Source of the DNA: Bacillus sp. V59.32b
GTDB lineage: Bacteria; Bacillota; Bacilli; Bacillales; DSM-1321
Assembly: GCF_003429085.1 (NCBI RefSeq)
Contig: NZ_QVTC01000003.1
Span: 19,173-59,172 of the forward strand
Direction: 5' to 3'
Length of the DNA stretch: 40,000 bases
The notes beneath the pieces are model-generated. The model worked only from the letters and a program-made list of their open reading frames with translations, did not search any database and was not told where the DNA came from. Positions within the stretch are counted from its first letter, which is position 1. The number at the start of each line of letters is the position of its first letter. The position numbers were made by a program, and so were the translations under genes. Positions 1 through 35,714 of the stretch are shown piece by piece.

Positions 1-1010
1 GTCGCATGTATGAACGTTATCAGACAATCCGGCTACATCTGATGGGGAAATCTGTCCAGGAAATCGCCGCCATTCACAAGCGAACCAGTAAAACCATCGG
101 AAACTATATCCGTTCCTACCAAGAACATGGATTGGACGGCTTAACCATGAAGTTCTCAACCGGAAAGACACCAAGATTGACGACGGAACAGCAGGCGCAG
201 GTAAAGCAGACCATTATTGATTTCCAGCCCCATGAGTGCGGGTTCCCGGCCAAGTTCAATTGGACGCTGGAACTCATTAGTTTGTACATTCTGCGAGAGT
301 TTGGAACGTCCTATTCCATTCGTGGCGTGTCGAAAATGATGGAACGGCTTGACCTAAGTTACACGAAACCAACCTATACCCTGGCCGCAGCCGGTGAAGA
401 AAAGCAAAAAGAATTTGTCGAAACGACTTTCCCAGAGGTAAAAAAATACTACAAGGGTGAAATTGATCACATTTTGTTTGAAGATGAAAGCATGATCCGT
501 GATTACCAGGCCCTGCAGTATACCTGGTTTGCCAAAGGAAAACAAAGAATCATTAAGACGACCGGAAAACATCGTAGCGTCAAACTGTTAGCTGTGTTAG
601 ATTACGTCACTGGAGAAATCGTATGGCAGGAAGAAGAGCACTATACAGCGCTTGAGTTCCTATCTTTCCTTAAAAAAGTGACAGCAGCCTACCCGACTGG
701 AAACATTGTCATGATTCTGGACAACGCACGAATTCACCATGCAAAAATGCTTGAACCTTTCCACAAAGAATTGAGAGGCAGATTGAATTTGATCTTCCTG
801 CCTCCTTACAGCCCTGAACTCAATGTGGTCGAGGGGCTTTGGAAATGGTTGAAATCCGACATCATCCATAACGTTTTCTACCATACCACAGCTGAAATTC
901 GCAGAACGTCCAGGCTTTTATGAAGCATATAAATCCTATGACAGTCATTGACCGACTGTGTATAAGGATGGAATCAAGTGCAATTCAGGAAAATCTTTAG
1001 TTCAACTTAT
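1..1010 (+). mobile_element. IS630-family insertion sequence, right part (left end outside the window)
   Basis: The transposase reading frames fill 6-1000. The right boundary was not mapped precisely and lies between the alternate-frame stop at 1000 and about 1030. No inverted repeat could be checked because the left end is missing. Confidence 0.7.
6..923 (+). CDS. IS630-family DDE transposase, 3' end frameshifted
   Basis: 305-aa ORF with an N-terminal HTH-like region and the core motifs LFEDES, ILDNARIHH and PPYSPELNVVEGLW, typical of IS630/Tc1-like transposases. The family-typical C-terminus (NVQAFMKHINPMTVIDRLCIRM...) continues in another frame, 905-1000. This implies a 1-nt indel near 903-907. 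Confidence 0.85.
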   Translation: MYERYQTIRLHLMGKSVQEIAAIHKRTSKTIGNYIRSYQEHGLDGLTMKFSTGKTPRLTTEQQAQVKQTIIDFQPHECGFPAKFNWTLELISLYILREFGTSYSIRGVSKMMERLDLSYTKPTYTLAAAGEEKQKEFVETTFPEVKKYYKGEIDHILFEDESMIRDYQALQYTWFAKGKQRIIKTTGKHRSVKLLAVLDYVTGEIVWQEEEHYTALEFLSFLKKVTAAYPTGNIVMILDNARIHHAKMLEPFHKELRGRLNLIFLPPYSPELNVVEGLWKWLKSDIIHNVFYHTTAEIRRTSRLL

Positions 1011-1033
1011 ATAGCACATATCATAGACATATA

Positions 1034-1444
1034 TTGGGGATTATGGAGTTTATTTTTTATCCTTATTTGACTCGGCCCATAATTGAGCAAGAAATCCATG
1101 ATGGACGAAAAAGAATAGATATAAGTTTTGATAATTCTGCTGAAAAAGGCTTTTTTCATCAACTGTATATTGCTAAAGATATACCAAGTCAATATATATT
1201 CGTAGAATGTAAAAATTATGGTTCAGAAGTTGCCAACCCAGAATTAGATCAACTCTCAGGAAGGTTTTCACCAAATCGTGGAAAGTTTGGTTTAATGGTT
1301 TGTAGGACTATTGTAGATATGGAAAAGTTCATTGCAAGATGTGCAGATACATATCATAATTCAAGAGGAATGATTATTCCTTTAGTGGATGAGGATTTTA
1401 TTTACTTGCTAAATGAAATAAAAAAAGGAAATAGTAAAAGATGA
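1034..1444 (+). CDS. PD-(D/E)xK nuclease-fold protein, probably 5'-truncated by the IS630 insertion
   Basis: 136-aa ORF with a D...E-x-K pattern (RIDISFDN ... YIFVECKNY). It begins directly after the IS with a TTG start (ATG at 1043) and no convincing RBS. Confidence 0.45.
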   Translation: MGIMEFIFYPYLTRPIIEQEIHDGRKRIDISFDNSAEKGFFHQLYIAKDIPSQYIFVECKNYGSEVANPELDQLSGRFSPNRGKFGLMVCRTIVDMEKFIARCADTYHNSRGMIIPLVDEDFIYLLNEIKKGNSKR

Positions 1445-1807
1445 GTTATTAGCGGAAAGATTAAGAAAAATAATTTTAAGATAGTATATTATAATCTATT
1501 AACCATGAAATTTAATTTAAAATCATGTATATAGTTAGTTCACCATCGTTTCGGTATTAAATGCAATTTAAGTTCCTTTAATGAGGAGGTCTTAAAAAGT
1601 TGATGATACACGACCTTTTGAGACCCCCTACTCAATTTTATCAACCAAAATTTCAAAATGAATTCAAAATCACTAGCAAACTATGTCGATATATTTTTAT
1701 TGACCGATATGGTCAGACATACCCGATGAATGGAGATTAAAAATGCATTCTGATTTTTAAAACCTGAGTCCCACCAAAGAAGAGTTTGGACAAAGGTGAA
1801 TGGTAAT

Positions 1808-3733
1808 TTAATTATAGCTTTCTCTATCCTCAGCAATCCTATCTAATTGAACTTCGCTATTAAAATCAATTCGACTCTTAAAAAATCGTTCCGTATCCTT
1901 GTCCATAAAATGAACATAGCAGCCTTTCATTCCGCGGGTCATGAGAACACGGTAAGTATTTTTAACAAGGTCGATAAATTGCTCTTTAGATCTTTTGACG
2001 ACTGTATCGTAGGAATGTTCTTTATTTCCTTCCCATCGTTGTTCATCAAGGTTATAAACCAGGTCAGGGCCAATGATTACTCCTACATAATCAAATTCAA
2101 ATCCTTGTGCTGTGTATATGCAGCCTACTTGATTAATGCCGTTAGGGTCATATGCCCAAAGGTGTGCTTTGGGAATGCCGGGAGCAAGTCTTGGTGCATC
2201 ATGTCTAGCATTCCATGGCCTTTTAAAGTCTCCAATTATAACATCTTCTTCTAATGTTCCATCCCATTTTGGCTGTTTGGACCATGGCCAGCAAAAGCCA
2301 GCTGTTACTCTTGCATCGAAACCGTTATCTGCTTTGTGTTTAATTGCATCTTCTAAACCCTGTGGGGAGTTAAAGATTTTGAATTCAAAATCGTCTTTTG
2401 AATCCCAAATTACATTGGCAGTCCTTTTGATACCTAATGTATTGTTGATCCAGTTAATGAAACCATCGGAGCCGTTACAGCGGAATTGGGCGTCTAATTC
2501 TTCAATATACACCTCGCATCCATAATCTAATGCAAATTTATTAATATATCCAACTGTTCCTATTTCATCTGGCCTAACGGCCTGATTATCATCGATAAAA
2601 AACACAGATACTTTAGATGTTTTGATAATTTCTTCTATTTGGGGGGTGTTGGAGCGTTCTTCTTTTTTCATATACATATTATTGCTTGTTTTTCTGATTC
2701 TGTGGGCTTCGTCACATATTAAAATATCAATTTCATTTTTCTCAGTTTTTGTATAACTATTAAAATATTTAAATTGGACTGAACCTCTTTTTCCAATTAT
2801 TTTTCTAAGTGTTTCAGTAAACGCTTTAGAACCAGTAGCATAATGGGAGTTGTATCCTTCCAATGATAAATCAGCCAATAAATTTAGTGCGATTACTGAT
2901 TTTCCAGTTCCTGGCCCGCCTTTTATAATAACCACTCTTTTTCGTTTATCATGAAAACCATCCCGGGCAAAAGCAAAAACTTTATCATAGATAACTTTTT
3001 GATTATCAAGAAGAATATATTCATCCAATCCTTTTATAGTATTACCAACATGCTTCATTAGTTTTTTGCTAGGGCGATATTGACTTTCCTCTACTTTTTT
3101 TAAGATAGGAAGTCCGTCGCCTTTTGCCAATTTGGTCTGAAGAAAACTCTTTAATTTAGGAACATCATCAGCAGTGAAAACAGGGAATTGATTTAACAAA
3201 GCTGTGAATTTTGAATCAAATAAAACATCTTCAGCATCGTAAGAATAATTATGTAGATAGGAACAAGATGTTAATCTGATAGGTTTTTCTCCATCATAAA
3301 AAGCTGTATGGGTATCCTGCAAATAAAGCTGATACTGTCCAACTTGAGCTGATGGATGAAGGACATCTCTTAGTGCACCCCCAACCCATGTGACAACCTC
3401 ATTTTCACCGTTAGAATGATCGCATTTATCCCATTGCTTTAATTCTATAATGACTGCCTCATTCTCGCCGCTTTCGTTTTTTCCAGTAATCATGCAGTCT
3501 AATCGTTTTGAGGTCACCGGCAATTGGTATTCAAGTAAGATTCCGTGATCTGTCATACCGCTATATTGAAATACTTGAGACAGTGCTCGCAAGGAATTTC
3601 TCCAAGATGCCATTTCAGAATCTGATGGATAGTATCGGTAGTAGTCAAAAAAACTTTCTCTTAACTTAGAAGCAATTTGATTTTGGATTGAGTCTTCAAT
3701 AAACTGCTCGGATGTCCCTGAATAAAGTCTCAT
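1808..3733 (-). CDS. DUF2075-type (Schlafen-helicase-like) P-loop ATPase with an N-terminal PD-(D/E)xK-like nuclease module
   Basis: 641 aa. Walker A is GGPGTGKS (nt 2897-2920, minus strand) and Walker B is ILICDEAHR. The N-terminus has a KRLDCMITG...AVIIELKQW nuclease-like motif. The C-terminus has YTAQGFEFDYVGVIIG and YRVLMTRGMKGCYV, which I recognise as DUF2075 hallmarks. Confidence 0.8.
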   Translation of the reverse strand: MRLYSGTSEQFIEDSIQNQIASKLRESFFDYYRYYPSDSEMASWRNSLRALSQVFQYSGMTDHGILLEYQLPVTSKRLDCMITGKNESGENEAVIIELKQWDKCDHSNGENEVVTWVGGALRDVLHPSAQVGQYQLYLQDTHTAFYDGEKPIRLTSCSYLHNYSYDAEDVLFDSKFTALLNQFPVFTADDVPKLKSFLQTKLAKGDGLPILKKVEESQYRPSKKLMKHVGNTIKGLDEYILLDNQKVIYDKVFAFARDGFHDKRKRVVIIKGGPGTGKSVIALNLLADLSLEGYNSHYATGSKAFTETLRKIIGKRGSVQFKYFNSYTKTEKNEIDILICDEAHRIRKTSNNMYMKKEERSNTPQIEEIIKTSKVSVFFIDDNQAVRPDEIGTVGYINKFALDYGCEVYIEELDAQFRCNGSDGFINWINNTLGIKRTANVIWDSKDDFEFKIFNSPQGLEDAIKHKADNGFDARVTAGFCWPWSKQPKWDGTLEEDVIIGDFKRPWNARHDAPRLAPGIPKAHLWAYDPNGINQVGCIYTAQGFEFDYVGVIIGPDLVYNLDEQRWEGNKEHSYDTVVKRSKEQFIDLVKNTYRVLMTRGMKGCYVHFMDKDTERFFKSRIDFNSEVQLDRIAEDRESYN

Positions 3734-3748
3734 TTAAAATCCCTCTTT

Positions 3749-4078
3749 TTATAATTCTGTATATTTCTTTTTACTGCCATACGCTTTTTCAACCGGATAC
3801 TTTCTTGCATTCTTCTGCACTTTATCTAAAATAATTTCTTTTAGGTCTAATCCTAATTTATCTGACATCAATATGGCATAAATCACAACATCAGCTAATT
3901 CGTCTTTAATATTTTCCAAGTTGTCTTTTACAGCTTCTTCGTTATTCTTCCATTGGAAATTCTCTAACAGTTCGGATGCTTCTAAAGATAGAGATATAGC
4001 CAAATCTTTAGGGGTATGAAATTGTCCCCAATTTCTTTCATCCCGGAAATGAATAATTTCTTTTAATAATTCATTCAT
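3749..4078 (-). CDS. MazG-like nucleotide pyrophosphohydrolase (all-alpha NTP-PPase)
   Basis: 109 aa with the EASELLE...W and DELADVVIY acidic helix motifs typical of small MazG/dCTPase-like enzymes. It lies 15 nt upstream of the DUF2075 gene on the same strand. Confidence 0.8.
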   Translation of the reverse strand: MNELLKEIIHFRDERNWGQFHTPKDLAISLSLEASELLENFQWKNNEEAVKDNLENIKDELADVVIYAILMSDKLGLDLKEIILDKVQKNARKYPVEKAYGSKKKYTEL

Positions 4079-4516
4079 AAAAACCCTCTTTTACTAGCAA
4101 CTTAGATTTATAAATCAATTATACTATTAATTTAAATTAAATAACTAACATACAGGTACAGAAAAATTGTAGCGAGAGAGGTGAAAAGCTCAATTTACTT
4201 TTATACCTTTATATTTTCAAAGTAGATAAAAAGATATTAGGGTTTACTCATTTACTAGTAATCTTAACTTTCAAAAGCAGTAATAGTAAAAACAAAGAAC
4301 TGTTAAATAAAACATAGTTATTCTAAAACTAGTCGCTGTAAACCCATCATGAGTGGATGAGGTTGGGAGAGGTATCTAGTAAGAGAAGTTTTTGAGGTAA
4401 AATGCTTCTTGCAGCGATTGCTTTATTGATTTGACAAAGTTTACTCATATTTATTTGCCTCAAACTGAATCAAGCCTTGGCTGGAGATTGAATTATCTGT
4501 TATCACAAAATTCCTC

Positions 4517-4545
4517 TTACATAAAAACCCAATTTACGATACTAT
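4517..4545 (+). promoter_or_regulatory. Candidate sigma-A promoter for the Gly-rich/OGG/kinase-NDT/QueC-like operon
   Basis: TTACAT (4517-4522), a 17-nt spacer, then TACTAT (4540-4545). It sits about 30 nt upstream of the RBS GGGAGGGAG. This is a pattern match in AT-rich DNA only. Confidence 0.3.
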
Positions 4546-4577
4546 AGATGTAAATGCTAGGGAGGGAGTTTTCAAAT

Positions 4578-4931
4578 ATGGGAGGAAGCGGTTATTCAGG
4601 AGCAAATAATGGTGGGTCTGGTGGAGGATTAGTAAATAATTGCGGGGATACATTAATACTCCAGCTTATTGTAAATCAGAATCAGAGTAGTATATGGTTA
4701 AATACTTCCCTCCACGATGCTGTTTATATAAATCTTAATAAAAATTCTGTTTTACCTATTATTGAGGTTTTAAAGCAAGTAGACAATACGCTTGTTGGGG
4801 TTGCCCCACCAAGCTACGGTTGGGTCATCGATTGCATTGAGAACGGCTGGCAGTACCAAGGAATAATTATTAAAAAAGAAGGAAGTCAGTATAATCCACG
4901 AATAACAGTAAAATTAGAAGGTTTAAAATGA
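4578..4931 (+). CDS. Small protein of unknown function with a Gly-rich N-terminus (MGGSGYSGANNGGSGGG...)
   Basis: The ORF track starts at 4554, but ATG 4578 is preceded by the RBS GGGAGGGAG at good spacing. The stop is 1 nt before the next gene's ATG (4933). No family recognised. Confidence 0.6.
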   Translation: MGGSGYSGANNGGSGGGLVNNCGDTLILQLIVNQNQSSIWLNTSLHDAVYINLNKNSVLPIIEVLKQVDNTLVGVAPPSYGWVIDCIENGWQYQGIIIKKEGSQYNPRITVKLEGLK

Positions 4932-4932
4932 T

Positions 4933-5658
4933 ATGGGTGATATTAAAGCGAATATTATTTTAAAGGAATTATGGGATATATATGGTGATTCAATAGATCA
5001 AGAATATAATTTATTTCAAAAATCAAAAGAACAAGTACTTGATGAGTTCTTCTTTGTATTATTAGGTGGTTTCGGAATCAGTTTCGAATTAAATTTATCA
5101 GGTCTTCAAATTCTAAAGAATCAAAGTTTATTTAGAAGAGAGTATTATAAAAGTCCAGATAACCTAGTGGCAATTGAAGAGAAGATTAGAGAACAGTTTT
5201 TCAAGAAACAGTTTACTCCTGCTACGTCTAATGGACAGTTGAGAAAATATAGATATATCGAAACAAAGCCTAAAATAATTTCAGAAGCTGGTTATTGGCT
5301 CTGGAAGAGCTGTGAATGGGAATTATTTGAGGAACTACATAAGTTTAATGCATTTGAGGCAAGGCTATGGTTATGTACTTGCCCTGGAATTGGGATGAAA
5401 TCTGCAAGTTGGTTTTTGAGAAACACAGGTTTTAATGACGATTGTGCTGTATTTGATGTTCACATATTAAGATTTTTAGATTATCTAGGTTTTCATGTTC
5501 CAAAGCAATTAACAGAAAGAATGTACCTTAAATTAGAAGATGCATTACGAAACGTTTGTGACAGTGTTGGTGTGACCTTAGGTAAGATGGATTATTTGTT
5601 ATGGTTGTTGTCCAGAAATGGGTTTCTTAATCACGTTGAACGGGGTGAGGACATTTGA
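4933..5658 (+). CDS. Ogg2/AGOG-like HhH DNA glycosylase (8-oxoguanine glycosylase family, COG1059-like)
   Basis: 241 aa. The motif CPGIGMKSASWFLRNTGFNDDCAVFDVHILRFL (from nt 5386) matches the archaeal-type Ogg pattern GxGxK(E/S)AS.FLRN...(L/F)D.HI, including the catalytic Lys and Asp positions. Confidence 0.75.
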   Translation: MGDIKANIILKELWDIYGDSIDQEYNLFQKSKEQVLDEFFFVLLGGFGISFELNLSGLQILKNQSLFRREYYKSPDNLVAIEEKIREQFFKKQFTPATSNGQLRKYRYIETKPKIISEAGYWLWKSCEWELFEELHKFNAFEARLWLCTCPGIGMKSASWFLRNTGFNDDCAVFDVHILRFLDYLGFHVPKQLTERMYLKLEDALRNVCDSVGVTLGKMDYLLWLLSRNGFLNHVERGEDI

Positions 5659-6920
5659 GCCTTTCGATATATGGAGAGATTGGAATAGACATCTTACTAG
5701 ACAATGATTCTAGTATTTTTTATAGAACTGGTGGAGCGGGTTTATACGCAGCAATTGCAGCCGCAAAACAAGAAATGAAAGTAAACTTCTTAACTGTTTA
5801 CGGTCCTGAAATAGACAAATATAGCATGAGATTTTGGGAGACGATGGGTGTTTCAACACAACAGTCTTTATACTTAGAGAACTATAATGTTCCTCGTTAT
5901 TTAGTAACAGGCTACAAAGCATTTGAAAATAAGTATAGTACACCGATGACCGATGTAAAAATCGGAGTTGATTATAATCCTAGCATAGAAAAAGATTGTG
6001 AAGGTTTATTACTTTTTCCAATTGATCACACATTACCTGAATCTTTGTGTAAGCAAGCATTAGAAAGAAATATTCCAATATTTTTAGATCCTAAACCAAA
6101 TAATAAGTCAATTCAACAAGCCAAGACTATCTTAGAATATGTAACAGTACTCTTAGTTAATGAGGAAGAAGCTTTACTTTTATCTGAATCAACGGATATC
6201 GATGAAGCTATTAATAAATTAAACGTAATGGGACCTAAGTATATAATTTTAAAAAGAGGACACAAGGGCTGTACTTTGATTTACGATGAAAAAAGAATAG
6301 ATTTTCCTGCTTTCAAGAGTAATGTTGTTTGTACTCTTGGATCGGGTGATGTCTTTGGAGGAGCGTTTGCAGTAACGTTTTTGAGAACTAGAGATATAGA
6401 ATATAGTGTACAAATTGGGAATTGCGCTGCAGCTAATTTTATCGAAAGTGTATCTATTGAAACTGTAATTGATAAAGCAGGGGTGGAAAAAGATCTTTTC
6501 CTTCGTGAGAAGCTTATTACAGATGAAAAACTTCTTAAAAAAATTTATTTAGCTGGTCCCTTCTTCAGTAAACAAGAAATAAACTGGGTTAAACAGATTA
6601 CTGATAGACTAGAAAGTGCTCGATTTAGAGTTTTGTCTCCATCACGAGAGAATGGAATCATTAATAAAGATATGTCGTTAGAACAGCGAAGAAAGGTTTT
6701 TCAATCTGACATTGATCTTTTAAACGATGCTGATGTCGTGGTAGCTTTACTAGATCATGATGATCCCGGCACATGTTTTGAAATCGGGTATGCTTATGAA
6801 AAAGGAATTCCTGTATACGGTCTTAAAACTTCTCAAAATGATTTGAATAATATGGTTCGGTTTGGTTGCAAGGAATTATTAGACAATATTGAAGATCTTA
6901 TAGGGATATTATATGGCTGA
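5655..6920 (+). CDS. Fusion protein: PfkB-family sugar/nucleoside kinase (N) + nucleoside 2-deoxyribosyltransferase-like domain (C)
   Basis: 421 aa. The N-terminus has the GG motif (TGGAGLYAA) and the PfkB signature TLGSGDVFGGAF (nt 6333-6368). The C-terminal ~125 aa carry IYLAGPFFS (6546-6566) and DHDDPGTCFEIGYAYEKGIPVYGL, the NDT (PF05014-type) pattern. The TTG start overlaps the upstream stop (TTTGA), with RBS GGGGTGAGG. Confidence 0.8.
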   Translation: MSLSIYGEIGIDILLDNDSSIFYRTGGAGLYAAIAAAKQEMKVNFLTVYGPEIDKYSMRFWETMGVSTQQSLYLENYNVPRYLVTGYKAFENKYSTPMTDVKIGVDYNPSIEKDCEGLLLFPIDHTLPESLCKQALERNIPIFLDPKPNNKSIQQAKTILEYVTVLLVNEEEALLLSESTDIDEAINKLNVMGPKYIILKRGHKGCTLIYDEKRIDFPAFKSNVVCTLGSGDVFGGAFAVTFLRTRDIEYSVQIGNCAAANFIESVSIETVIDKAGVEKDLFLREKLITDEKLLKKIYLAGPFFSKQEINWVKQITDRLESARFRVLSPSRENGIINKDMSLEQRRKVFQSDIDLLNDADVVVALLDHDDPGTCFEIGYAYEKGIPVYGLKTSQNDLNNMVRFGCKELLDNIEDLIGILYG

Positions 6921-7554
6921 GAATAAAGTTGTCTTACTTTTTTCAGGTGGGATTGATTCAACTGTTTTGTATTATTGGCTTGTGGATGCAGATTATGATG
7001 TATTCCCTATTCATATAAATTATGGTCAAACAACTTATCCAGGTGAAGTAAAAGCTATAAAAGAAATAACTCATGGAAAATTCCCAAGAAAAACTTTTTT
7101 TGTTGAGGTGCCTAATCTAAGAAATATAGGTACAGGATCACTAGTTGGTGACTTACCACAATCTGATTACTCCCAAGATAACTGGATGAAAAGCGAATTC
7201 TTTCCAAATAGGAATATGATTCTAATATCTATCGCAGCTTCATACGCCTATAAAATGGACATAAATAAATTGGCTATTGGAGTAGTAGGAGAGAACTCTT
7301 ATAGTGATACAGGGGCTGCCTTTATCACTAGTATTGCCGCAACATTGTCTGAGTCTTTAAATTCATTTGAATTAATTACACCTTTCGTAGGTAAAAATCG
7401 CAACTTTGTGGTTGATGAATGCCGACGATTGAATGTCCCTCTAGAGAAAACATTTTCATGTAATTGTCTGAGGAATCGACATTGTTTATTGTGTAGCAGT
7501 TGCCTGGACAGACAACACTTATTGGAGAGATTGGGAAAGCAAAATGCGTTTTGA
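6913..7554 (+). CDS. QueC-like PP-loop ATPase (divergent paralog of 7-cyano-7-deazaguanine synthase)
   Basis: 213 aa. PP-loop is LLFSGGIDST (6943-6960). The C-terminal Cys cluster is SCNCLRNRHCLLCSSC, matching the QueC Zn site. It is clearly diverged from the canonical QueC at 35767. It overlaps the upstream gene by 8 nt. Confidence 0.8.
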   Translation: MAENKVVLLFSGGIDSTVLYYWLVDADYDVFPIHINYGQTTYPGEVKAIKEITHGKFPRKTFFVEVPNLRNIGTGSLVGDLPQSDYSQDNWMKSEFFPNRNMILISIAASYAYKMDINKLAIGVVGENSYSDTGAAFITSIAATLSESLNSFELITPFVGKNRNFVVDECRRLNVPLEKTFSCNCLRNRHCLLCSSCLDRQHLLERLGKQNAF

Positions 7555-8358: not shown

Positions 8359-8642
8359 TTACTTTCGTCCTAGTATCAGCGCAGCTTGCTTTAAAATATC
8401 ATTCTCCATTTGTAACTGTTTGAGTTCCTTACGGAGCTTTACCAATTCTGTTTCTTCCGGTGTTCGGTTATCGGCTTCTTTGAATGAACCGGAGGCATTA
8501 TGTTGAGAGATCCACTTATCCAGAGAAGATGTGTTAGATCGTACTCACGAATAATATCCTTTCTTGGCTTCCCATTCTGATACAGCTGCACCATTTGATT
8601 TTTAAATTCTTCTGAAAACGTTCTTCGTTCTCTTTTAGTCAT
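8359..8642 (-). pseudogene. IS3-family orfA (HTH + leucine zipper), frameshifted
   Basis: MTKRERRTFSEEFKNQMVQLYQNGKPRKDIIREYDLT, then a frame change near 8528-8535. It continues as SSLDKWISQHNASGSFKEADNRTPEETELVKLRKELKQLQMENDILKQAALILGRK*. Confidence 0.7.
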
Positions 8643-8715
8643 CGTAGATTCTCCTCAACTATTGTATTAGTAGTCTACTTGACCTTAAATTTTCTGTCTA
8701 GATAAGTGTAGCCGT

Positions 8716-9096
8716 TCCAGCATGTAGTCTTCAATGTCCCTGGTCGACATGCCTTTTGCATAAAGGCCTATAATTAGGTCTTCCAATCCATTCGATGTAG
8801 TTTCAATACTTCGTGATAATCTGTGGTTCAAATTTGCCTTTTCTGTCTCTCGGCAATTTTAACTCTGTATTTCCAAACTTGGTTTTAACTCTTTTTTGGC
8901 TATATCCATTTCGGTTGTTTCCGGAATGGTCACCTTCGTTATCATGCTTCTTGTAACCCAGGTGATCGTCAATTTCAGCTTCCAATACATGTTGAATGGT
9001 ATTTTTGAATAGATCCTTCAACTTTTCCTGAATGTCTTTCACTGTCCGACAATCTTTCGCTAATTCTTTCGCCAACCAGTTTGTTTCGTTTTGCAT
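8716..9096 (-). pseudogene. IS256-family (mutator-type) transposase, N-terminal fragment, frameshifted and truncated by the IS3 insertion
   Basis: 97-aa ORF 8803-9096 (…EAEIDDHLGYKKHD…NGYSQKRVKTKFGNTELKLPRDRKGKFEPQIITKY). It continues after a 1-nt frameshift as TTSNGLEDLIIGLYAKGMSTRDIEDYM, then family similarity stops at about 8715. RBS AAGGAG lies upstream. The element end is probably near 9190. Confidence 0.7.
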
Positions 9097-9626
9097 AAAT
9101 GATCATCTCCTTGATGGTAAATTTAACCATTCGCAAAACTTCTTACATCCTCCTGAAAGTATTAATATCTTTTTTATCAATGCTTTATAACCCAATAAAA
9201 TCTTCAGAATATTTCCAAATTATCTGCTCGAAAACTCCTCGATCATGAACGTCTTCTTCTCTAAAGTAAATGCAATCCTATTGCATTACACCCTTGAAAA
9301 TTGTATCCATTATCACTCGGTCTTCCAATTCCTCCCATACTTGGCAATGCGGTAGTATTTTTAATTTATCTTCCATAGTATTTGACGCTCCTTTCTTCTT
9401 AATCTTCCAAGGAATTAAAGATGGTTCCTGCTAGTACACAAGATAAAATGAATTATTAGAGATTTTAATCCAATAAGAAATCGAATAAGCAGCAATCAAC
9501 TTCGTCTCCAGATCGTTTTTTTTCGAAATGAAATAATCATTGTTTTCACTATATAAATATATTTTCTACATAGATTTAATTTGTGATAGGATATATTAGA
9601 ATGCTTTAAATAAGGTGGAGGTTTTT

Positions 9627-11666
9627 ATGCAAAAAAAAGTATTGGTTGTGACTTCATGTACGGGCGAAAAAGTCCATCAACCAACTAATGAGCTCCAATT
9701 AAATGATTTTAAAGACGTTAGTATGTTAAAAAAGCGCGAAGAAGAACTCGCTTCATATAAAACTACTGCTGGAGAAATGTACACCGGAAAGCAACACGTT
9801 GCTTTAATGGAGGGTGTGAAGAAATATCGAGATCATGGTGGCGATATTGATGTAGCCATTTTATCAGCTGGTTACGGCATGTTGAGAGAAAACGATGTAA
9901 TTGTTCCTTACGAAGTAACTTTTAATTCAATGAGTGGTGTTGAAATAAAATCGTGGTCTAAATATATATCTATATCCCAAAAGTTGGAGAAATGGATAAA
10001 AGATTATGATTTGATTTTTTTCCTCCTAGGTGATAAGTACTTACAAGCTATTGAATGGCCTTTGAAAACAACAGAGGGTCAAAAGTTATTTTTCTTTGCA
10101 GGTGATGCAAGTAAGCATAAAGTTCTAATAGCTCCAAATCATTATGTTATTGCTGCCCGTGAATTGGAAGCAAAAATATTTAGATCAGGCCTTATTGAAT
10201 TAAAAGGATTTCTATTCAACAAGCTTCTTAGTTATGGAATTGAAAATAATAATATGTGGGAATCTATAGCAGAGTATCCTGAACGAATTAGAGAATATTT
10301 ATTAAGTTTCTATAAGTTAGGCCAACAAATATCCATGTTTGAAGATGAAGAATTGGAGTCTAAATTATTGTCTTTTTATACAATTGCTGTCCCGTATGAA
10401 AAATTGGCAAGAAACTATGGTTCTGAATTCATGTTTTATATTCCTGAAAATGATGATCGTGTGGATCCTCGATATGATTTTATTGAAGACTATTCAGATC
10501 CACAAAGGGATAGGTTGGTAGACGATGTATATGCACATGAGTTACACCATCAACCTCAATATGATGGAATTCTAATTTCGAAGGTAAATGTAGATAAGGC
10601 GACGAAAAAGAAAACCAGTATGATTCATGAAATGGGTATACGTGAATTCTTAAGGCTTCCTGATAACTATTCAATAATGGGAGATTGTGGAGCATTTAGC
10701 TATATTGGCAAGGAGTTACCTCCATATAAAACTGAAGAAGTTCTTAATTATTATAGGGATTTGGAATTTAATTATGGAGTATCAGTAGATCATTTAATTG
10801 TTGGATCATTTGCCAAAGATGAAGCAGAAAGAATTCGCAGATATGAAATAACCTTAAACAATGCAGAAGATTTTATAACAAAATATAAACAGAATAAAGG
10901 TGAATTTCGTAGGAAGTTTACTCCAATTGGAGTAGCGCAAGGTTGGGATCCAATTTCATTCCGAAATGCAGTATCTGACTTGGTTAAAATGGGATATGAA
11001 TACGTTGCGCTAGGTGGACTTGCTAGAGAAAAATCCTATACGATAGTTGAAATTTTAAAGGCAATTGCTCCTGTGATTCCAAATAATAATTTTAGAATGC
11101 ACTTATTTGGTGTGGTACGTGACAACATGGAAGTAATGAAAACATTTCATAAACTAGGTGCTACTTCTTTTGACTCTGCATCTCCATTAAGGAGAGCGTG
11201 GTTGGGCTCGGAACATAATTATTATGGTAAGAATCAGCATTTTTCTGCAATTAGAATTCCTGAGGCAAAAGAAAATACTGGTCGAGTTAAAAAATTGATA
11301 TCAGAGCAAGGTGGAGCATTCTCTGAATATAAAGCACTCGAAATGAAAGCATTAGATTCTTTAAGAGCTTTTGACCGGGGAGATATGGATCTAGACACAA
11401 CCTTGGAAGCAATTTTAGCATATGATGAAAGACTTGGAGAAAAACGTGAAAGGCACGCTGATTTTTATCGCGAAGTATTAAAAGAAAAGCCATGGAAGCA
11501 ATGTGGTTGTAACATATGTACTGAAATTGGAATTGATGTGATGATTTTTAGAGGTAATAATCGTAATCGAAGAAGAGGTTTTCATAATACCCATGTTTTT
11601 TATGAGCAAGTTACCAACTTGAAAAAAGAAATAAAATCAGAACTTCTTGTGCCAAATTCTTACTAG
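9627..11666 (+). CDS. dpdA: DpdA/TGT-like DNA(?)-guanine transglycosylase fused to an unknown ~300-aa N-terminal domain
   Basis: The C-terminal half has the TGT/DpdA motifs GDCGAFSY (10680-10703), VSVDHL, IGVAQGW, ALGGLA, MHLFGV, SFDSASP, the Zn motif CGCNIC (11502-11519) and FRGNNRNRRRGFHN. The N-terminal domain has VVTSCTGEK...MYTGKQH...ILSAGYGML...VPYE. ATG 9627 follows the RBS AAGGTGGAGG; the track start, GTG 9615, lies inside that RBS. Confidence 0.8.
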   Translation: MQKKVLVVTSCTGEKVHQPTNELQLNDFKDVSMLKKREEELASYKTTAGEMYTGKQHVALMEGVKKYRDHGGDIDVAILSAGYGMLRENDVIVPYEVTFNSMSGVEIKSWSKYISISQKLEKWIKDYDLIFFLLGDKYLQAIEWPLKTTEGQKLFFFAGDASKHKVLIAPNHYVIAARELEAKIFRSGLIELKGFLFNKLLSYGIENNNMWESIAEYPERIREYLLSFYKLGQQISMFEDEELESKLLSFYTIAVPYEKLARNYGSEFMFYIPENDDRVDPRYDFIEDYSDPQRDRLVDDVYAHELHHQPQYDGILISKVNVDKATKKKTSMIHEMGIREFLRLPDNYSIMGDCGAFSYIGKELPPYKTEEVLNYYRDLEFNYGVSVDHLIVGSFAKDEAERIRRYEITLNNAEDFITKYKQNKGEFRRKFTPIGVAQGWDPISFRNAVSDLVKMGYEYVALGGLAREKSYTIVEILKAIAPVIPNNNFRMHLFGVVRDNMEVMKTFHKLGATSFDSASPLRRAWLGSEHNYYGKNQHFSAIRIPEAKENTGRVKKLISEQGGAFSEYKALEMKALDSLRAFDRGDMDLDTTLEAILAYDERLGEKRERHADFYREVLKEKPWKQCGCNICTEIGIDVMIFRGNNRNRRRGFHNTHVFYEQVTNLKKEIKSELLVPNSY

Positions 11667-11724
11667 AAAAATAATAAAGTTCCTTGTTTATATTGTGTAT
11701 CTAGAAAAATTAGACTGGTGTAAG

Positions 11725-11755
11725 GAAAGAGGTAACTCTCTTTCTTTTTTTTTTT
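11725..11755 (+). terminator. Rho-independent terminator after the dpdA-fusion gene
   Basis: Stem GAAAGAG (11725-11731) pairs with CTCTTTC (11738-11744), with a 6-nt loop, followed by an 11-T run. Confidence 0.7.
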
Positions 11756-11812
11756 AGGAATGATTTAATGTTTTTAAAGGTTTATAAATATACTTCAATT
11801 CGAGGTTAAGAG

Positions 11813-12631
11813 ATGGGTAATTTAAAAATCAATAACGTCAAGAAATTAAATCGCAGAGATAAAAATCATCTCTATCTCTATATTGCTTCCTCAAATGAAA
11901 TAAAAGAATGGAAATTAAAAAATGGAGACCCTTTTTTAGGGGGAGTCGATGGAGTTCTTTATTTAACCTGTCTTGATATAATGGAGTGTTTTTGCGTTAA
12001 TTCAAACCAATTATCTATAGAAATTACAGCTCCCTTATTAAGATCTGATATTGGTATAAATATTAATAATGACTTTTTAGTGGTTATTCAAAAGCAAAAT
12101 CTTCAAGACACGGTTAAAAGTATGTTTCAAAATGATTCATTACTCAATACATGGATTGAAATAAAGGGTTCCCGAGTTAGTAAAAATTCCCTAAAAGTTA
12201 TTACAATAAACTCATTAAAAAACATTATGAGTACACTTTTTAGTAATAATAGTATCTCTGAAACAGAGGAATTTACGACTTTTCTGCGGATTTATCTACA
12301 AGAATTTATCAAGGAGAACTCTATTTATTTTCCGTATAGTGTAAAACAAATGGTAGAAATTAAAGAAAGCACTGTCGTCCATAGTGTGAATACTTGGTAT
12401 ATTTTGATTAAGTATTTTAAAGAGCAATGGGAAAACTCATATGAACAGGGTATAAAGGCTCCAATATTTTTAAAAGAAATTACATATAAAAATTGGCAAG
12501 GTAATTTCTTCGATAGATCAAGTCCCTTCTGGCTAGAGTTCAACAAAGATTCTAAACGTCCTTTTTATCCTAGTAAAAGTAATCAAGAAATAATTTATAA
12601 AGCTTGGAAAGATCTAACCGAACCTTCTTAA
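11813..12631 (+). CDS. Hypothetical protein, monocistronic, between the two DpdA paralogs
   Basis: 272 aa with RBS GAGGT upstream of the ATG, bracketed by terminators on both sides. The N-terminal ~50 aa (…IKEWKLKNGDPFLGGVDGVLYLT) faintly resemble an AbrB/SpoVT-type swapped hairpin. No family recognised. Confidence 0.55.
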   Translation: MGNLKINNVKKLNRRDKNHLYLYIASSNEIKEWKLKNGDPFLGGVDGVLYLTCLDIMECFCVNSNQLSIEITAPLLRSDIGININNDFLVVIQKQNLQDTVKSMFQNDSLLNTWIEIKGSRVSKNSLKVITINSLKNIMSTLFSNNSISETEEFTTFLRIYLQEFIKENSIYFPYSVKQMVEIKESTVVHSVNTWYILIKYFKEQWENSYEQGIKAPIFLKEITYKNWQGNFFDRSSPFWLEFNKDSKRPFYPSKSNQEIIYKAWKDLTEPS

Positions 12632-12650
12632 AATAGAAGGTTTTTTCTTT
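12621..12650 (+). terminator. Rho-independent terminator overlapping the stop codon of the 272-aa gene
   Basis: AACCTTCT (12621-12628) pairs with AGAAGGTT (12635-12642). The loop contains the stop TAA and is followed by TTTTTCTTTT. Confidence 0.7.
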
Positions 12651-12683
12651 TATTTTTAGAAAAAAGTATATATAATTAATCTA

Positions 12684-12703
12684 TCACGTATCTTCACGTA
12701 TCT
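12684..12703 (+). repeat. Perfect tandem 10-bp direct repeat TCACGTATCT x2, upstream of the dpdA2 operon
   Basis: Read directly: 12684-12693 is identical to 12694-12703. The repeat lies between a TATAAT hexamer (12671-12676) and the RBS/start at 12712-12733. Possible operator. Confidence 0.5.
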
Positions 12704-12720
12704 AAAATATCAAAAAGGCG

Positions 12721-13620
12721 GTGTGTATTAATTTGGATTTTTATATCAGTTGGTCACACAGTGATGCAGTTTTTAGTGATTATTTTGATAGTTGTCCTAT
12801 GCTTATTTCTGCTATTCCTGATAATAAATATGCATTGAAGAAATTTAATAGAAGTCCGCAGAAAATTATAATAGATTCTGGTGCGTTTTATTATTCTAGG
12901 CAGAATGTAGCAAGAAAATTGAAAGACATTATGGATATTCAATGCTATATGATAGATGGGGCACCTAATGATGTACCAATTAAAATCGTGCATTTAGATG
13001 AACCTTTAACAGAAAAGAAAGCGCTTACAGAAAAATATAATTCAATTGAAAAAACGCTATTGAATGCATACGAGCATTTTAATTTATTTCAAATGGAAGG
13101 ATTTCCTCAAAATATTAGCATGATGGGTGTTATACAAGGGTTTGACTTTGCAAGTATTCAATTTTCTATACATGAACTAAAAAAGATGGGTTACACCTCA
13201 TTCGGTATAGGATCCTTATTAAAAAAATCAGCAAAGGATCAGATATCCATTATTAATTTTATTTCTGAAATTGTCGGATCTGAAAATCTTCATGTTTTTG
13301 GGGTTACTGGTATCCCCCAAATTAAAGAAATGGCAAAACTAAAAATCTCTTCATTTGATTCAAGTAGACCGACAATGGTAGCAGCTTATCATCAAATAAT
13401 CTATAGCAATCCTTTTAGAATTTTTTTAATTTCCGAATCCAATGTAACAAAAACGCAAAAAAGAATATCTAAACCCTTAAATTGCAACTGTCCTGTTTGT
13501 AATAATAAGCCTGAAGATATAATGAAAATTGATCATCGGAATTATACAAAACTTAGATCTATACATAATTATTATCATTTGATTGAAACAATTAAAGATA
13601 TTAAAAGAGAGGTATTATAA
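12721..13620 (+). CDS. dpdA: Second DpdA/TGT-like transglycosylase paralog (short form)
   Basis: 299 aa with IIIDSGAFYY (12871-12894), VHLDEP, MGVIQGF, FGIGSL, LHVFGV, SFDSSRP, the Zn motif CNCPVC (13483-13500) and HNYYH. The start is uncertain: GTG 12721, or TTG 12733 at better spacing from AAAGGCGG. Confidence 0.75.
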   Translation: MCINLDFYISWSHSDAVFSDYFDSCPMLISAIPDNKYALKKFNRSPQKIIIDSGAFYYSRQNVARKLKDIMDIQCYMIDGAPNDVPIKIVHLDEPLTEKKALTEKYNSIEKTLLNAYEHFNLFQMEGFPQNISMMGVIQGFDFASIQFSIHELKKMGYTSFGIGSLLKKSAKDQISIINFISEIVGSENLHVFGVTGIPQIKEMAKLKISSFDSSRPTMVAAYHQIIYSNPFRIFLISESNVTKTQKRISKPLNCNCPVCNNKPEDIMKIDHRNYTKLRSIHNYYHLIETIKDIKREVL

Positions 13621-14375
13621 TGTCATTATTTCAAATTTGTTATGGACCAGAAATCCAATCGATTTTTGAAGTAATCAATAAACAGCCCGGAATTAAATTT
13701 CAGGAGTTGGTAAAGAAATTTCAGTATGAAGAGAACGGTGATATAACTTCCTTAGTCGAAGCAGTAGGGAAATTTCTTGTAAATTTAGGATTCATTGAAA
13801 TTGATGAAAATAAAAGAATTTTCCCCTTAATAAAAAAATTTAGCAAACTTGAAACTTTAAAACGGTTGACAGAAATATCGAACAGTATAAAGGATCCTTC
13901 CGATCAAAATTATGTGTTTTCGTCGTTATACTATGAATTGTTTATACGTCATAATGAATTATATATAAAGAATTTGCATTACGAAACAAATTTACATTAT
14001 GAGAAGTGCGTCGTTAGTCATGAGAAAATCAATGCTTGGAAGAGAATAATGCAATACTTGGGTCTAGGATATAGAGTTTATGGGGGCTTTTATGCATTGC
14101 CGCATTTGGATTTAATAGTGGACATAATTCAGCTTCATCAAAATTGGGAAGGGCCATTTCAGGAATTCATTGAAAAAAATGTAGACCCAATTATACCGTG
14201 TGTTTTTAATGGGAACGCATACAATGGTGTTGTGTATGGATTAATAAATTTAAGTAGTACTGATTTAATAGAACTATCTAAAAAACAGGACCTACCATTC
14301 CATTCATATGGAGAAAGAAAAGAGTGGAACTGGATTAAAGTGGGGGGAGACGCTGATGATTCCGTGCATAACTAA
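13620..14375 (+). CDS. wHTH-like protein, paralog of the 273-aa protein at 23460
   Basis: 251 aa. The ATG overlaps the upstream stop (TAATG). It shares the motif INAWKRIMQYLGLGYRVYGGFYALP with INGWVTWANYFGLGHTMNGKFIVNP in the 273-aa protein, and has a similar N-terminal helical/wHTH-like region. Confidence 0.6.
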   Translation: MSLFQICYGPEIQSIFEVINKQPGIKFQELVKKFQYEENGDITSLVEAVGKFLVNLGFIEIDENKRIFPLIKKFSKLETLKRLTEISNSIKDPSDQNYVFSSLYYELFIRHNELYIKNLHYETNLHYEKCVVSHEKINAWKRIMQYLGLGYRVYGGFYALPHLDLIVDIIQLHQNWEGPFQEFIEKNVDPIIPCVFNGNAYNGVVYGLINLSSTDLIELSKKQDLPFHSYGERKEWNWIKVGGDADDSVHN

Positions 14376-17085: not shown

Positions 17086-17483
17086 AATAGGATCACCATC
17101 TATTTTAAAAAAAGTTTCACTAATTCTGTTATCTTTTTCCATCTAAATATGTTAGCCCAATAAAAGATCGCTATTCACTTGGTAAGTGTTACCGGGTAGT
17201 ATTCGGTCTTTTTCTTGTCCTTTCTGTGTCTCTAAAGCATTCCCTACAGCACTTAATAAGGTGAAAATGCGAGGGATTCCGATGTTCTATGTCTGGATAA
17301 AGGGCGTCTCTTAGAGAAAACAAGTTAGAAACATATATATTCAGTGCCAAAACAAAAAATATAGAGTCATATGATGGCAGAAGCGTCCGAGTTGCAACAA
17401 AATATTTCTTATATATGATATATCTAAAAACTATTATATAATAGAAATATGTAATTATTTGTAACAAGGTGATGATCATAATT

Positions 17484-20400
17484 ATGAGTAAAATAAAAAC
17501 CGGAATGTATGTAAGGTGTAATATAGATATTGAACATCCTGAAACACCCAGAAGGTTTGCACTCGGACAAGTGAAGAGTGTTTATAACAATGAAGAAGTC
17601 TTAGTAGACTTTTATAGTTTAGAAAGACAATTTGATTATTTTTCTGTTTATCATGTTCCGAAACAACAAAGGTATCATCAAACTCAGATTGAACATGTTC
17701 ATATTTTACCTAACACAATCGTGGAATGGAATAATGATAAACAAAGCGGGAAAATTATTGAGTTTTCCCATAAAGATAAAGAAGGGTTCAATTGGTACTA
17801 CACCGAAGTTATAGTGGCTAAAATGAAGAAAATTAACATTTTTTGTGAGACACAACTAAAGGTGCCTTTTAACCGAGCTGATGCCGACCCAGTAAAGCAA
17901 CTAATAAATTATGAACTAAATCATCCCAGATGGTATTTAAAACGTGATATTGTAACTAATTCACTTCACACATTAAAAAATGCCACCTTTGGGTTTGATA
18001 CATTAGTAGGCTCACGTGTCTACTTACTAAAGCACCAAGTTGATACAATAGTTCGGGCAATATCGGAAAGGCCATGCCGTTTTATGTTAGCTGATGAAGT
18101 AGGACTCGGAAAAACGATTGAGGCCATTGTTATAATGAAGGGCTTGCAAAAACGTATCGGCGATATGAGAATCTTAATAATTACCCCAGAATCATTATTG
18201 TACCAATGGAAAAATGAATTATCCTTTAAATTCTGGAGTAATTTTCAAGTGCATGGGGAAGAATCCTCCCGCAAAAAGCATCCATTTGTGTTATTTCCAT
18301 TAGAAAAAGTCAATACTCCTATATGGGATGATTTATTGGCAGACAATTGGGATTTAGTAATTATAGATGAGACTCATCGTTTACTTTATCTCGATTATGA
18401 ATATAAAAAATTACTTCAATTAAGCCAGAAAGTCGAAAATCTTCTGTTACTAAGTGCGACTCCAATACAGTCTCGTCATAATGAATTTTTAAAATTAGTT
18501 CGTTTACTAGAACCGCATAAATATTTAAAAATATCAGAGCAACATTTTGACGCATTGCTGGAAAAACAGAATTATATTCGGAGACGCGTTTATCAAATGA
18601 TGCAAGAACTTCCGGATTATATAGAAGATGAACTGGTAGAAGATTTCATTGATAGCTTTGAAAAAGTATCAAAGAGACTTGAAGATAAAATTTTTGATAG
18701 ATTAATTGACAATATTGATCCGGAATCAGATGACCAAGGTTTGGATCAAGTTAAATTAGCCTTGGCGTATTTAGCTGAAAATTATCAAATTGAAAGAAAA
18801 ATTATTCGCCACCGGCGTAAAGAATTGGAACAACAACTACCTAAACGTCAAAAAGAAGTAATTTCTTATGAAATGCAAGGTTCAGATTTGCTTTATTATG
18901 AGTTAGATACAAATGAATCGCTGTTATCTTATTTAGATCTTATTAACCAAAAAGGTTATTTGCCAGACCAAGCAGGATCCTTCCACCGTGTCTTTTTATC
19001 CAGTATGTTTAGTTCCCCATGGGCACTTGAATCGGTGGTTTCAAAAAGACTGGAAATTCTGAAGGAAAACGAGGTATACATTGATCGTGAAATCTTTAAA
19101 CCGTTAAACATTCTTCCTGTTTCAAAAGATGAGGAAATGTACTTGAATGATTTATTGGGAATAATAGAAAGATGGAAAAAGGCTGCGGAAAAAGAATTTT
19201 TCCATATTCAGGATCTTTACGATGATCCTGACCTCATTAAAGGAAGATTAATGTATATTTTAGACTATTTGACCGAAAATACGGAAAACGAAAAGGTTGT
19301 TATTTTTTCTCAGTGGAAAGAAACAATTATCCAATTTGAACGACTCCTTACTGCTAGATTTGGTAAAGATAGTGTTAGAAGTTTTTATCAAGGAAAAAAC
19401 GAGGAAGAACTTCAGACAGCGGTAGACGATTTTCAGAGAAATATTGACTGCAGATTTATGGTTTGTGACCCACTGGGAGGGGAAGGCCGAAACTTTCAGA
19501 TGGCCGATTTTTTGGTTCATATTGATTTACCCTGGACTCCGACAGACTTGGAACAGCGTATAGGAAGGCTTGACCGCATTAATCGAGAAAAAGATGTTCT
19601 TTCTGTTATATTCATTTCAGAAGAAACAATAGAGGAAGAACTATTTAGATTATGGAATGAAGGACTACAAGTTTTTGATGAGTCTTTAAGTGGAATTGAA
19701 ATTGCTTTGTTTGAAATCCAAAATGCTATAACAGAAGCAATTACAAAGAATTTGGAAAACGGGCTTAGCAATATATTAAATGAAATAAACTTGAGTCTTC
19801 AAAAAATGAGAGAAAAGGTAGAGGAAGAACGATTCTTCGATATTGCTAGACAATTAGATCAATCAGTAGAGAAGCAATTACTACATTTAATTCATCAATT
19901 TGATGCAAATGATGGTGGTATTTTGGCTTCAACGATGATGTCTTGGTCTTCCTTCTGTGGATTGCATGGAACAGATGTGGAAAAAGGGACAGCAATTATG
20001 TATTCCCCTAAGTCTTTTAATTTTAAATCAATGAATAATTCACAATATTTTGTTCCTGATTTAGAAGAAGCCCGAAAGAGGTCTTTACGTTCTAAGGAAT
20101 TGAGAGGGACTTTTATACGAAAGAAAGCGATTGAACGAGAAGACTTGATGTTCTTTGCTCCCGGAGACTTATTATTCGATTCAATCGTAAATAATGCTTA
20201 TGCTCTTTCATCTGGAAGATCTACAGCAATAGAATTTAGAACCAATGAGGTGCACTGGGAAGGTATTGTATTCACATGGTCAATGTCATTAAATCCAAAA
20301 CCATTGATTGATATAGGGGAATCATTAGATCATCTTTATCATGCTCAAGGTTATCTCCCATTGGAGCATTTTAAAACTGTTGAGCACGTCGGAGGAGATG

Positions 20401-23376: not shown

Positions 23377-23459
23377 AAAGGTGTCCTTAGAGTTCTCTCA
23401 TAAAAGGTTAGATCTAAGGATATTCCTAAGATGTTTATAAAGAGAGAGGATGGTGGAAG

Positions 23460-24281: not shown

Positions 24282-24286
24282 TTATT

Positions 24287-28160: not shown

Positions 28161-28177
28161 TAAGGAGAATTCCCATC

Positions 28178-35647: not shown

Positions 35648-35678
35648 AAATTATATAAAAAGTCCGCTATCAGGCGGT

Positions 35679-35712: not shown

Positions 35713-35714
35713 AA

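Follow-up and report, generated by a model that had tools for sequence, protein, structure and literature searches.

Here, we describe a four-gene cassette in the genome of Bacillus sp. V59.32b and tentatively propose that it represents a further, third type of system in which a QueC-family enzyme conjugates a nucleobase to a protein N-terminus, autonomous and residing in defense islands. The cassette lies at positions 4578 to 7554 of a 40,000-nucleotide stretch of contig NZ_QVTC01000003.1 (hereafter the window), where four + strand open reading frames (ORFs) fill the interval and encode a small protein with a glycine-rich tail, a DNA glycosylase homologue, a fusion of a PfkB kinase with a nucleoside deoxyribosyltransferase (NDT), and a paralog of the queuosine-pathway enzyme QueC. 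These genes and their upstream signals are as follows.

4578 to 4931, + strand: small Gly-tailed protein of 117 amino acids (aa), ATG start, no family match
4933 to 5658, + strand: Ogg2-type helix-hairpin-helix (HhH) DNA glycosylase/lyase homologue of 241 aa (PF22175)
5655 to 6920, + strand: PfkB kinase-NDT fusion of 421 aa, TTG start (PF00294 and PF05014)
6913 to 7554, + strand: QueC-family PP-loop ATPase paralog of 213 aa (PF06508)
4560 to 4568, + strand: ribosome-binding site GGGAGGGAG, 9 nt upstream of the ATG at 4578
Within 4516 to 4568, + strand: candidate promoter read from the sequence, CTTACA, 18 nt, TACTAT (4540 to 4545)

The genes are tightly coupled: the first two ORFs are 1 nt apart, the second and third share 4 nt (TTGA), and the third and fourth share 8 nt. 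An initial annotation of this DNA had drawn the same gene boundaries and inferred translational coupling, both of which the ORF calls and junctions bear out; its 1-nt gap and 8-nt overlap stand, and the overlap it wrote as TTTGA is the 4-nt TTGA. Profile searches with Pfam and NCBIfam also agree with all four of its domain identities, and no family matches the small Gly-tailed protein. Orthologues of the small protein all begin at the M-G equivalent to the ATG at 4578, and the element GATACTATAGA is common to the window and the orthologous P. azoreducens locus. The promoter of the first gene fell below threshold in a consensus scan and its assignment is that of a candidate. Gene order is kept in nine further distinct loci (eight with the glycosylase gene and one without), at identities of 44 to 75% for the two proteins searched, QueC-like and PfkB-NDT, which argues that the four genes are real and under selection and not chance ORFs. 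A wider survey comprised 96 distinct loci with PfkB and NDT in one ORF, with counts taken only where the flanking sequence was sufficient. A QueC-family gene lay immediately downstream on the same strand in 67 of 71 loci, a member of the small-protein family upstream in 64 of 69, and an Ogg homologue within 3 kb in 35 of 45 (25 on the same strand).

The QueC paralog matches PF06508 (E 1.6e-36) and carries the NCBI label "7-cyano-7-deazaguanine synthase", with a score of 111 bits against the cut-off of 150 of the QueC equivalog model TIGR00364. It keeps the PP-loop S11-G-G-I-D-S16, Y37, R100-N101, Y130-x-D132 and the four Zn-binding cysteines C183/C191/C194/C197; across 26 homologues, the PP-loop, the four cysteines, Y130, D132 and R100 show little or no variation. 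Y130, D132 and R100 align with Y115, D117 and R86 of Cap9, which hold the conjugated base in type IV of the cyclic-oligonucleotide-based antiphage signaling systems (CBASS) (10.1101/2025.04.06.647259), and the full set of residues by which we tested for the Cap9 class (SGGxDS, Cys4 and Tyr/Asp/Arg) is present in the paralog. The canonical QueC set is absent: the paralog is without the His of YxQxHxxE, the Cys of YPDC and Tyr189 of the Zn region, and reads YGQTTYPGE, YSDT and SCN at these sites. Of these three missing features, Libby et al. probed Tyr189 alone, and their Y189A variant lost canonical QueC function (PMC13329287). The paralog is 26% identical to the canonical QueC encoded in the window, and it is no nearer to Cap9 (38 bits) than to canonical QueC (45-48 bits).

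The likely acceptor is suggested by the first gene of the cassette, whose product has the N-terminus M-GGSGYSGANNGGSGGG, starting MGGSG on a disordered tail of ~20 residues. An M-G-[GS] start was found in 28 of 32 retrieved family representatives, followed by a Gly/Ser-rich stretch of 15-40 residues and then by a conserved domain of ~90 residues. Among survey loci, the 74 resolved N-termini were MSG (44), MGG (16), MGS (6), MSS (3) and a few others, and 66 of the 74 loci had an M-[GS]-[GS] start, in a count where the choice of start codon favored M[GS][GS] if alternatives existed. Both features that we tested for in the partner of a Cap9-type deazaguanylase, a small residue 2 that permits cleavage of Met and a long unstructured tail, are present. 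In type IV CBASS, the CD-NTase begins M-GGSGGSFGSG, and after Met removal its Gly2 receives 7-amido-7-deazaguanine from Cap9 (10.1101/2025.04.06.647259); the QatB protein of QatABCD starts with MGTS, which is essential, on an unstructured tail that reaches into the active site of QatC (PMC13279940, PMC13376578). The match of an MGGS-like start and disordered tail with those of the CBASS CD-NTase (MGGS) and QatB (MGTS) favors N-terminal conjugation.

Beyond the tail, an AlphaFold2 model of the small protein (predicted local distance difference test, pLDDT, of 82.6 overall and <50 for residues 1-18) shows residues 25-117 as a compact, beta-rich domain. Foldseek matched this domain in the PDB, with probability 1.0, to the HIRAN domains of L. 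plantarum lp_0118 (3k2y, TM 0.62/0.71), human HLTF (4xzg/4s0n) and Rad5, and in BFVD to several HIRAN-annotated phage proteins (E 4e-5 to 4e-4) as well as Bacillus phage G gp253 (E 4e-5); across both libraries, HIRAN fold matches had E-values of 4e-5 to 5e-3. The protein had no Pfam, NCBIfam or PADLOC match, and a profile search of the PDB returned no HIRAN, only spurious matches such as leucine-rich repeats. The family is small, as a profile of seven close homologues retrieved only 38 clusters among 1.84 billion representatives.

The remaining enzymes look active and each appears to fit one chemical logic. The glycosylase matches the Ogg-HhH family PF22175 (E 2.4e-21), scores 89.5 bits against the cut-off of 183 of PRK01229, and retains the catalytic Lys (GIGMKSASWFLRN) and Asp (FDVHIL) of Ogg2 in an alignment to the solved structures 9o00, 3n0u, 3fhf and 3knt. 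The fusion joins PfkB (PF00294, E 6e-24) and Nuc_deoxyrib_tr (PF05014, E 3e-20) in one protein, with a PfkB ribokinase-family kinase at residues ~1-285 and NDT at ~295-421, and its nearest solved structures are ribokinases and the N-deoxyribosyltransferases 6evs and 7m5h. Across 17 diverse fusions, the kinase motifs (GG switch, DP, NxxE and GSGD) and the NDT motifs (YLAGPFF and D..GT.FE.G.A) are invariant, and on our reading the latter motif would hold the NDT catalytic Glu, as judged by position in the family motif and not by alignment to a solved NDT. By family, the cassette can provide enzymes to place a 7-deazaguanine onto an amine (QueC), make an N-glycosidic bond (NDT), phosphorylate a sugar (PfkB) and break a purine N-glycosidic bond (Ogg).

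Our observations are of the genes present, their conservation, the motif at the N-terminus, the catalytic residues kept and the separateness of the cassette from Dpd; the chemical steps of the possible pathway that follows, like a role in defense, are inferences. Removal of Met1 from the small protein would leave Gly2 exposed as the first residue of a flexible Gly/Ser tail. The QueC-family enzyme would activate 7-carboxy-7-deazaguanine with ATP and ligate it to the N-terminal amine, as Cap9 does, drawing its substrate from host queD and queE, both of which are in the window; we consider it probable that the QueC paralog conjugates a 7-deazaguanine carboxylate in this way to the small protein's N-terminus. 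N9 of the tethered base would be free, and the NDT domain might transfer a 2'-deoxyribosyl group onto it, with the fused PfkB kinase phosphorylating the sugar to yield a protein-tethered deazaguanine nucleoside or nucleotide. The Ogg-type glycosylase might then cleave the base-sugar bond, by which the system would be reset or restrained. That NDT and PfkB build a deoxynucleoside or nucleotide on the tethered base and Ogg serves as the reverser is a more doubtful part of the proposal. The HIRAN-like domain would give target recognition, possibly of DNA 3' ends. In an extended version, PfkB would add a 5'-phosphate, and guanylate kinase would extend the tethered nucleotide and an HD triphosphohydrolase would trim it in some genomes. 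It is a decidedly speculative thought that the HIRAN-like domain could bring a DNA 3' end to the tethered nucleotide, so that the protein is covalently joined to, or blocks, replicating phage DNA, with Ogg clearing the adduct from host DNA.

Comparison with known systems places the cassette near type IV CBASS, with which it shares a QueC-family ligase with conserved Cap9 base-holding residues, a partner that starts MGGS-like on a flexible tail, a location in defense islands, and an Ogg that is optional (~1/3 of type IV CBASS operons; 35 of 45 cassette loci). According to Wassarman et al., the conjugated base keeps its N9 free for ribose addition, and the OGG-like Cap11 could reverse such a step (10.1101/2025.04.06.647259). 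In contrast to type IV CBASS, the cassette is without a TGT-like Cap10, in whose place stands the PfkB-NDT fusion, and its partner protein is not a CD-NTase but HIRAN-like and 117 aa long. The initial annotation had likened the genes to the Cap9/Cap10/Cap11 triad while seeing no CD-NTase or CBASS effector. The Cap9/Cap11 logic of that resemblance holds, the TGT/Cap10 member does not, as none is found near cassettes elsewhere, and no CD-NTase or CBASS model matched the cassette proteins, nor did any CD-NTase Pfam family appear in annotated neighbors. Its further suggestion of a deazaguanine-conjugation module comes close to the reading favored here. With QatABCD, the cassette has in common a QueC-family enzyme beside a partner of no family; in QatB, both the unstructured N-terminal tail and Gly2 are essential. 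It differs in having neither the KAP NTPase (QatA) nor the TatD (QatD), in a minimal QueC paralog (213 aa) where QatC has ~400 aa with extensions and remodeled motifs, and in a small protein that is beta-rich where QatB is helical. Belonging to neither system, the cassette would be the third architecture among QueC-based systems for N-terminal conjugation, one whose additional enzymes hint at the steps after conjugation.

Relatives of the cassette were found by exact-protein look-ups and scans of sequence collections. A scan of genome contigs with a QueC alignment returned mostly canonical QueC (Opitutae and others), with at least three true cassette loci among the matches listed, and the PfkB-NDT query was much better at finding them. 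The four-gene order is intact in Paenibacillus (three species), Cohnella, a Bacillaceae metagenome-assembled genome, Desulfitobacterium hafniense, Clostridium amylolyticum and a metagenome contig, and a Thermohydrogenium locus has the same arrangement without Ogg. In the proteobacterial form, the small protein is followed by the fusion (at 25-33% identity) and then by a 198-aa QueC paralog, with Ogg often nearby and at times on the other strand. An HD gene follows the cassette in 7 of 10 Firmicute-type loci, and a dGTPase-like HD gene stands just downstream in 12 of 49 survey loci; guanylate kinase and a possible nucleotidyltransferase also recur downstream. In the window, tblastn with four HD proteins, guanylate kinase and two accessory proteins found no HD gene or remnant. 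The cassette DNA had no match in a plasmid collection.

Members of the adenylosuccinate-synthetase family are amine-to-purine ligases, and in three loci (L048, L065 and L127) an adenylosuccinate-synthetase-like enzyme (PF00709, E 1e-42) replaces the QueC paralog. This replacement and the downstream nucleotide enzymes agree with purine or nucleotide chemistry on an amine. In this Pedobacter-type variant (6665-11417 in L048), the adenylosuccinate-synthetase-like enzyme is followed by a dGTPase-like HD protein and a 236-aa protein, which has no family match and a motif that by eye resembles a nucleotidyltransferase head domain; the small protein in L048 is without the Gly/Ser tail. A ~224-aa protein with no Pfam match follows the QueC paralog at locus L046 (8771-9445) and at ~38 other survey loci, comprising most proteobacterial-type cassettes and none of the Firmicute type, and may correspond to the "nitroreductase" neighbor of QueC Cluster 4 (PMC13329287). 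A metagenomic operon (L043, 6252-9660) encodes TGT-like, Ogg-HhH and QueC-like proteins with a TIR protein and an 8xMP membrane protein. Its Ogg gives 86 bits with that of the window, its QueC-like protein is 33% identical to the window paralog and its TIR protein starts MGGPGS on a tail of ~40 residues; the operon looks as though the Cap10/Cap11/Cap9 triad were paired here with a TIR protein in the place of the CD-NTase.

The setting of the cassette, as read from gene neighbors and not from an enrichment statistic, is the usual one of anti-phage systems. Where contexts were annotated, the cassette has among its neighbors QatABCD, Wadjet-like genes, ATPases resembling BrxC/D, McrB, Mrr, an MmeI-type enzyme and SLFN-type helicases, and about ten fusion-bearing loci are on IMG/VR viral contigs. 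In the window, the cassette is flanked by a Dpd island and by a SLFN-helicase/MazG pair. From this genomic context, a role of the cassette in defense is likely. The pair, at 1808-4078 on the - strand and diverging from the cassette, comprises a 641-aa Schlafen-group-3/DUF2075-type helicase (PF09848, E 6e-94) and then a 109-aa MazG-like pyrophosphohydrolase, and may be another defense gene pair; in P. azoreducens (L005), too, the cassette has a Schlafen-group-3 helicase upstream. At L046, a proteobacterial-type cassette has a complete QatABCD operon (730-5367) as its immediate neighbor, itself close to a phage terminase gene, giving two different QueC-family systems in one island.

The pairing of QueC with a PfkB-NDT fusion has appeared in print. 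Libby et al. (2026) defined a QueC "Cluster 4" with a PfkB-Nuc_deoxyrib_tr neighbor in 89% of neighborhoods and proposed purine salvage (PMC13329287); their neighborhood table for this cluster lists HTH_3, nitroreductase and LysR, and neither Ogg nor the small protein (PMC13329287). The cassette shares with Cluster 4 the fusion as operon neighbor (with the 8-nt overlap in the window, and at 67 of 71 loci), and the proteobacterial (Klebsiella-type) loci retrieved carry the published CH(x)5CxxCxGCxK. The window family, in contrast, has YGQ(x)5E and CN(x)6CxxCxSCxD where the published motifs are YGQ(x)6E and CH(x)5CxxCxGCxK, and as it departs from these motifs we place the window QueC paralog in a sister group. 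A literature search on HIRAN with QueC, and on PfkB and NDT with defense, found nothing beyond that study (PMC13329287), with subscription journals mostly outside the search. The view of the initial annotation that this combination is undescribed was therefore nearly right: the QueC/PfkB-NDT pair was in print in 2026, without the small protein, Ogg or a reading as defense (PMC13329287).

The neighboring Dpd island provides an obvious alternative, in which the cassette stands in place of DpdB and DpdC as another route to install or remove 7-deazaguanine in DNA, as the initial annotation had suggested with the TGT-like genes of the window as partners. The cassette and dpdA are indeed ~2 kb apart and share a strand, the window yielded no DpdB match, just as the annotation had seen no DGQHR/ParB-like protein there, and both systems involve 7-deazaguanine chemistry, needing precursors of the queuosine pathway. 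We nonetheless consider this alternative highly improbable. A 683-aa protein at 9615-11666 fuses an N-terminal DUF6884/DpdC-like domain to DpdA (460 bits to the DpdA model; PADLOC DpdC E 1.7e-10), so that DpdC is not missing from the window. A syntenic Dpd variant occurs on plasmid pART37 of Paenibacillus sp. 37, where the 12 kb flanking the dpdA match in each direction contain no cassette. Between the cassette and dpdA (8439-9096), on the strand opposite to the cassette, lie insertion sequence remains, namely a Mutator-family transposase fragment (Transposase_mut, 97 of ~379 residues) and an IS3-type HTH_Tnp_1 fragment. The cassette and Dpd (dpdA-K) share no genes: as the annotation had recognized, none of the four belongs to the dpdA-C set, and none of the four proteins matches DpdB (DGQHR) or DpdC (DUF6884) models. 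Co-occurrence points the same way, with the outcome that the annotation itself had named as refuting its reading: no TGT-like gene lay within 7 kb at any of the 25 survey loci whose flanks extend 7 kb or more in both directions (three TGT-like queries were used in phmmer at E 1e-5, which very divergent TGTs could escape), and no Dpd or TGT gene lay within 8-10 kb of any of the Firmicute-type loci with the conserved order, nor in any annotated genome context. The TGT-like genes of the window belong to the Dpd block, and the transglycosylase-type enzyme of the cassette itself is the NDT domain. We are highly confident that the cassette is autonomous and independent of Dpd. The QueC paralog was also rejected as a preQ0 supplier of Dpd, given that a canonical, riboswitch-controlled queCDE operon adjoins dpdD and that the paralog is without the canonical residues.

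Several observations weigh against N-terminal conjugation and the tethered chemistry proposed here. HIRAN is an assignment at the level of fold only, as there is no sequence-profile signal: none of 31 family members gave a Pfam HIRAN match at E-values up to 10, and the NPYD and RYY residues by which HLTF binds DNA 3' ends are not evident in the small protein in a comparison by eye with the HLTF HIRAN sequence. Proteobacterial-type small proteins mostly start M-S-G and not M-G-G, and we know of no precedent for Ser as a conjugation acceptor. NDT enzymes act on free bases, their action on a protein-tethered base is to our knowledge unprecedented, and NDT-like domains in other defense systems act as effectors with NAD+ or nucleotide glycosidase activity. 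PADLOC has no model for the small protein, Ogg or the fusion, and the window copy, being without the HD gene usual in Firmicutes, may be incomplete. Purine salvage, finally, is the sole published view of the QueC/PfkB-NDT pair (PMC13329287).

That published annotation is close to a small-molecule pathway, in which the QueC paralog would make a free 7-deazaguanine base (amide or nitrile), NDT would add deoxyribose and PfkB a phosphate, for salvage or for an antiviral nucleotide analogue, with the small protein as regulator or scaffold. All three enzyme families work on free bases, nucleosides or sugars, and genes for guanylate kinase and dGTPase-like HD proteins are frequent downstream of the cassette. 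Such a pathway, however, leaves unexplained the M-[GS]-[GS] start and disordered tail of the coupled first gene as well as the loss of nitrile-synthase residues with the base-holding residues kept, offers no obvious role for an Ogg-type DNA glycosylase, and would place salvage genes, unexpectedly, in defense islands and on viral contigs; we judge it unlikely, if a serious contender. A further possibility keeps the conjugation step as we propose it and puts no sugar on the tethered base, with NDT as an effector (a nucleotide or NAD+ N-glycosidase, as in some retrons and other abortive-infection systems) and PfkB as a nucleoside-binding sensor that docks the modified tail. NDT-like effectors have been reported from retron defense, Cap10 binds the modified CD-NTase tail and keeps its partner inactive, and no other component of the cassette is as large or as conserved as the fusion. 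The invariant kinase motifs NxxE and GSGD argue instead for real phosphotransfer, and the presence of Ogg suggests an N-glycosidic bond to deazaguanine at some stage, leaving the effector model rather improbable in our estimate.

Protein deazaguanylation was discovered in 2025, and the downstream target is unknown in both type IV CBASS and QatABCD. The cassette keeps the QueC ligase, the tailed acceptor and Ogg, swaps the enigmatic Cap10 for two enzymes of well-understood chemistry, and thereby points to a concrete next step, glycosylation of N9 on the protein-bound base, within a small system of three or four genes and ~3 kb. If true, the tethered chemistry would define a new class of post-translational modification, protein-nucleobase-sugar-phosphate, and would answer what follows deazaguanylation in type IV CBASS and Qat. 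The analysis also corrects an annotation trap laid by the NCBI name of the QueC paralog and by its published filing under purine salvage (PMC13329287). For the Dpd field the result is a negative one, in that the equivalent of DpdB must lie among the five conserved genes of the Dpd variant itself and not in the cassette.

Those five genes (9615-17085) encode the DpdC~DpdA fusion, a 272-aa protein, a second TGT-like protein (299 aa), a 251-aa protein and a 925-aa P-loop protein, and precede DpdE, F, G, H, I, J, K and D at 17469-35395. The second TGT-like protein had no PDB sequence match at 1e-3. The sole hint of DpdB in the window is a sub-threshold DndB-like signal in the 272-aa protein (11813-12631), for which BLASTP against Enterobacter DpdB gave E = 4.9 and a single-sequence AlphaFold2 model was unusable (pLDDT 32). 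Directly after dpdD stands a preQ1 riboswitch (RF00522, 42 bits, 35674-35716), followed by canonical queC (35767-36429, 277 bits), queD, queE and a queuosine-precursor transporter, reaching 38287, which gives the Dpd island its own preQ0 supply. On pART37, the same five-gene block is followed by DpdJ and DpdK and is accompanied by queE/D/C and a VUT transporter, with nfi, DNA polymerase IV and yolD upstream. The que genes thus adjoin dpdA in pART37 and dpdD in the window, and the Dpd variant appears to travel with, or insert beside, a precursor operon. Among the mobile elements of the window, the transposase fragments downstream of the cassette may mark the loss of the HD gene usual after Firmicute cassettes, and a 305-aa ORF at the left edge (6-923) is transposase-like by eye.

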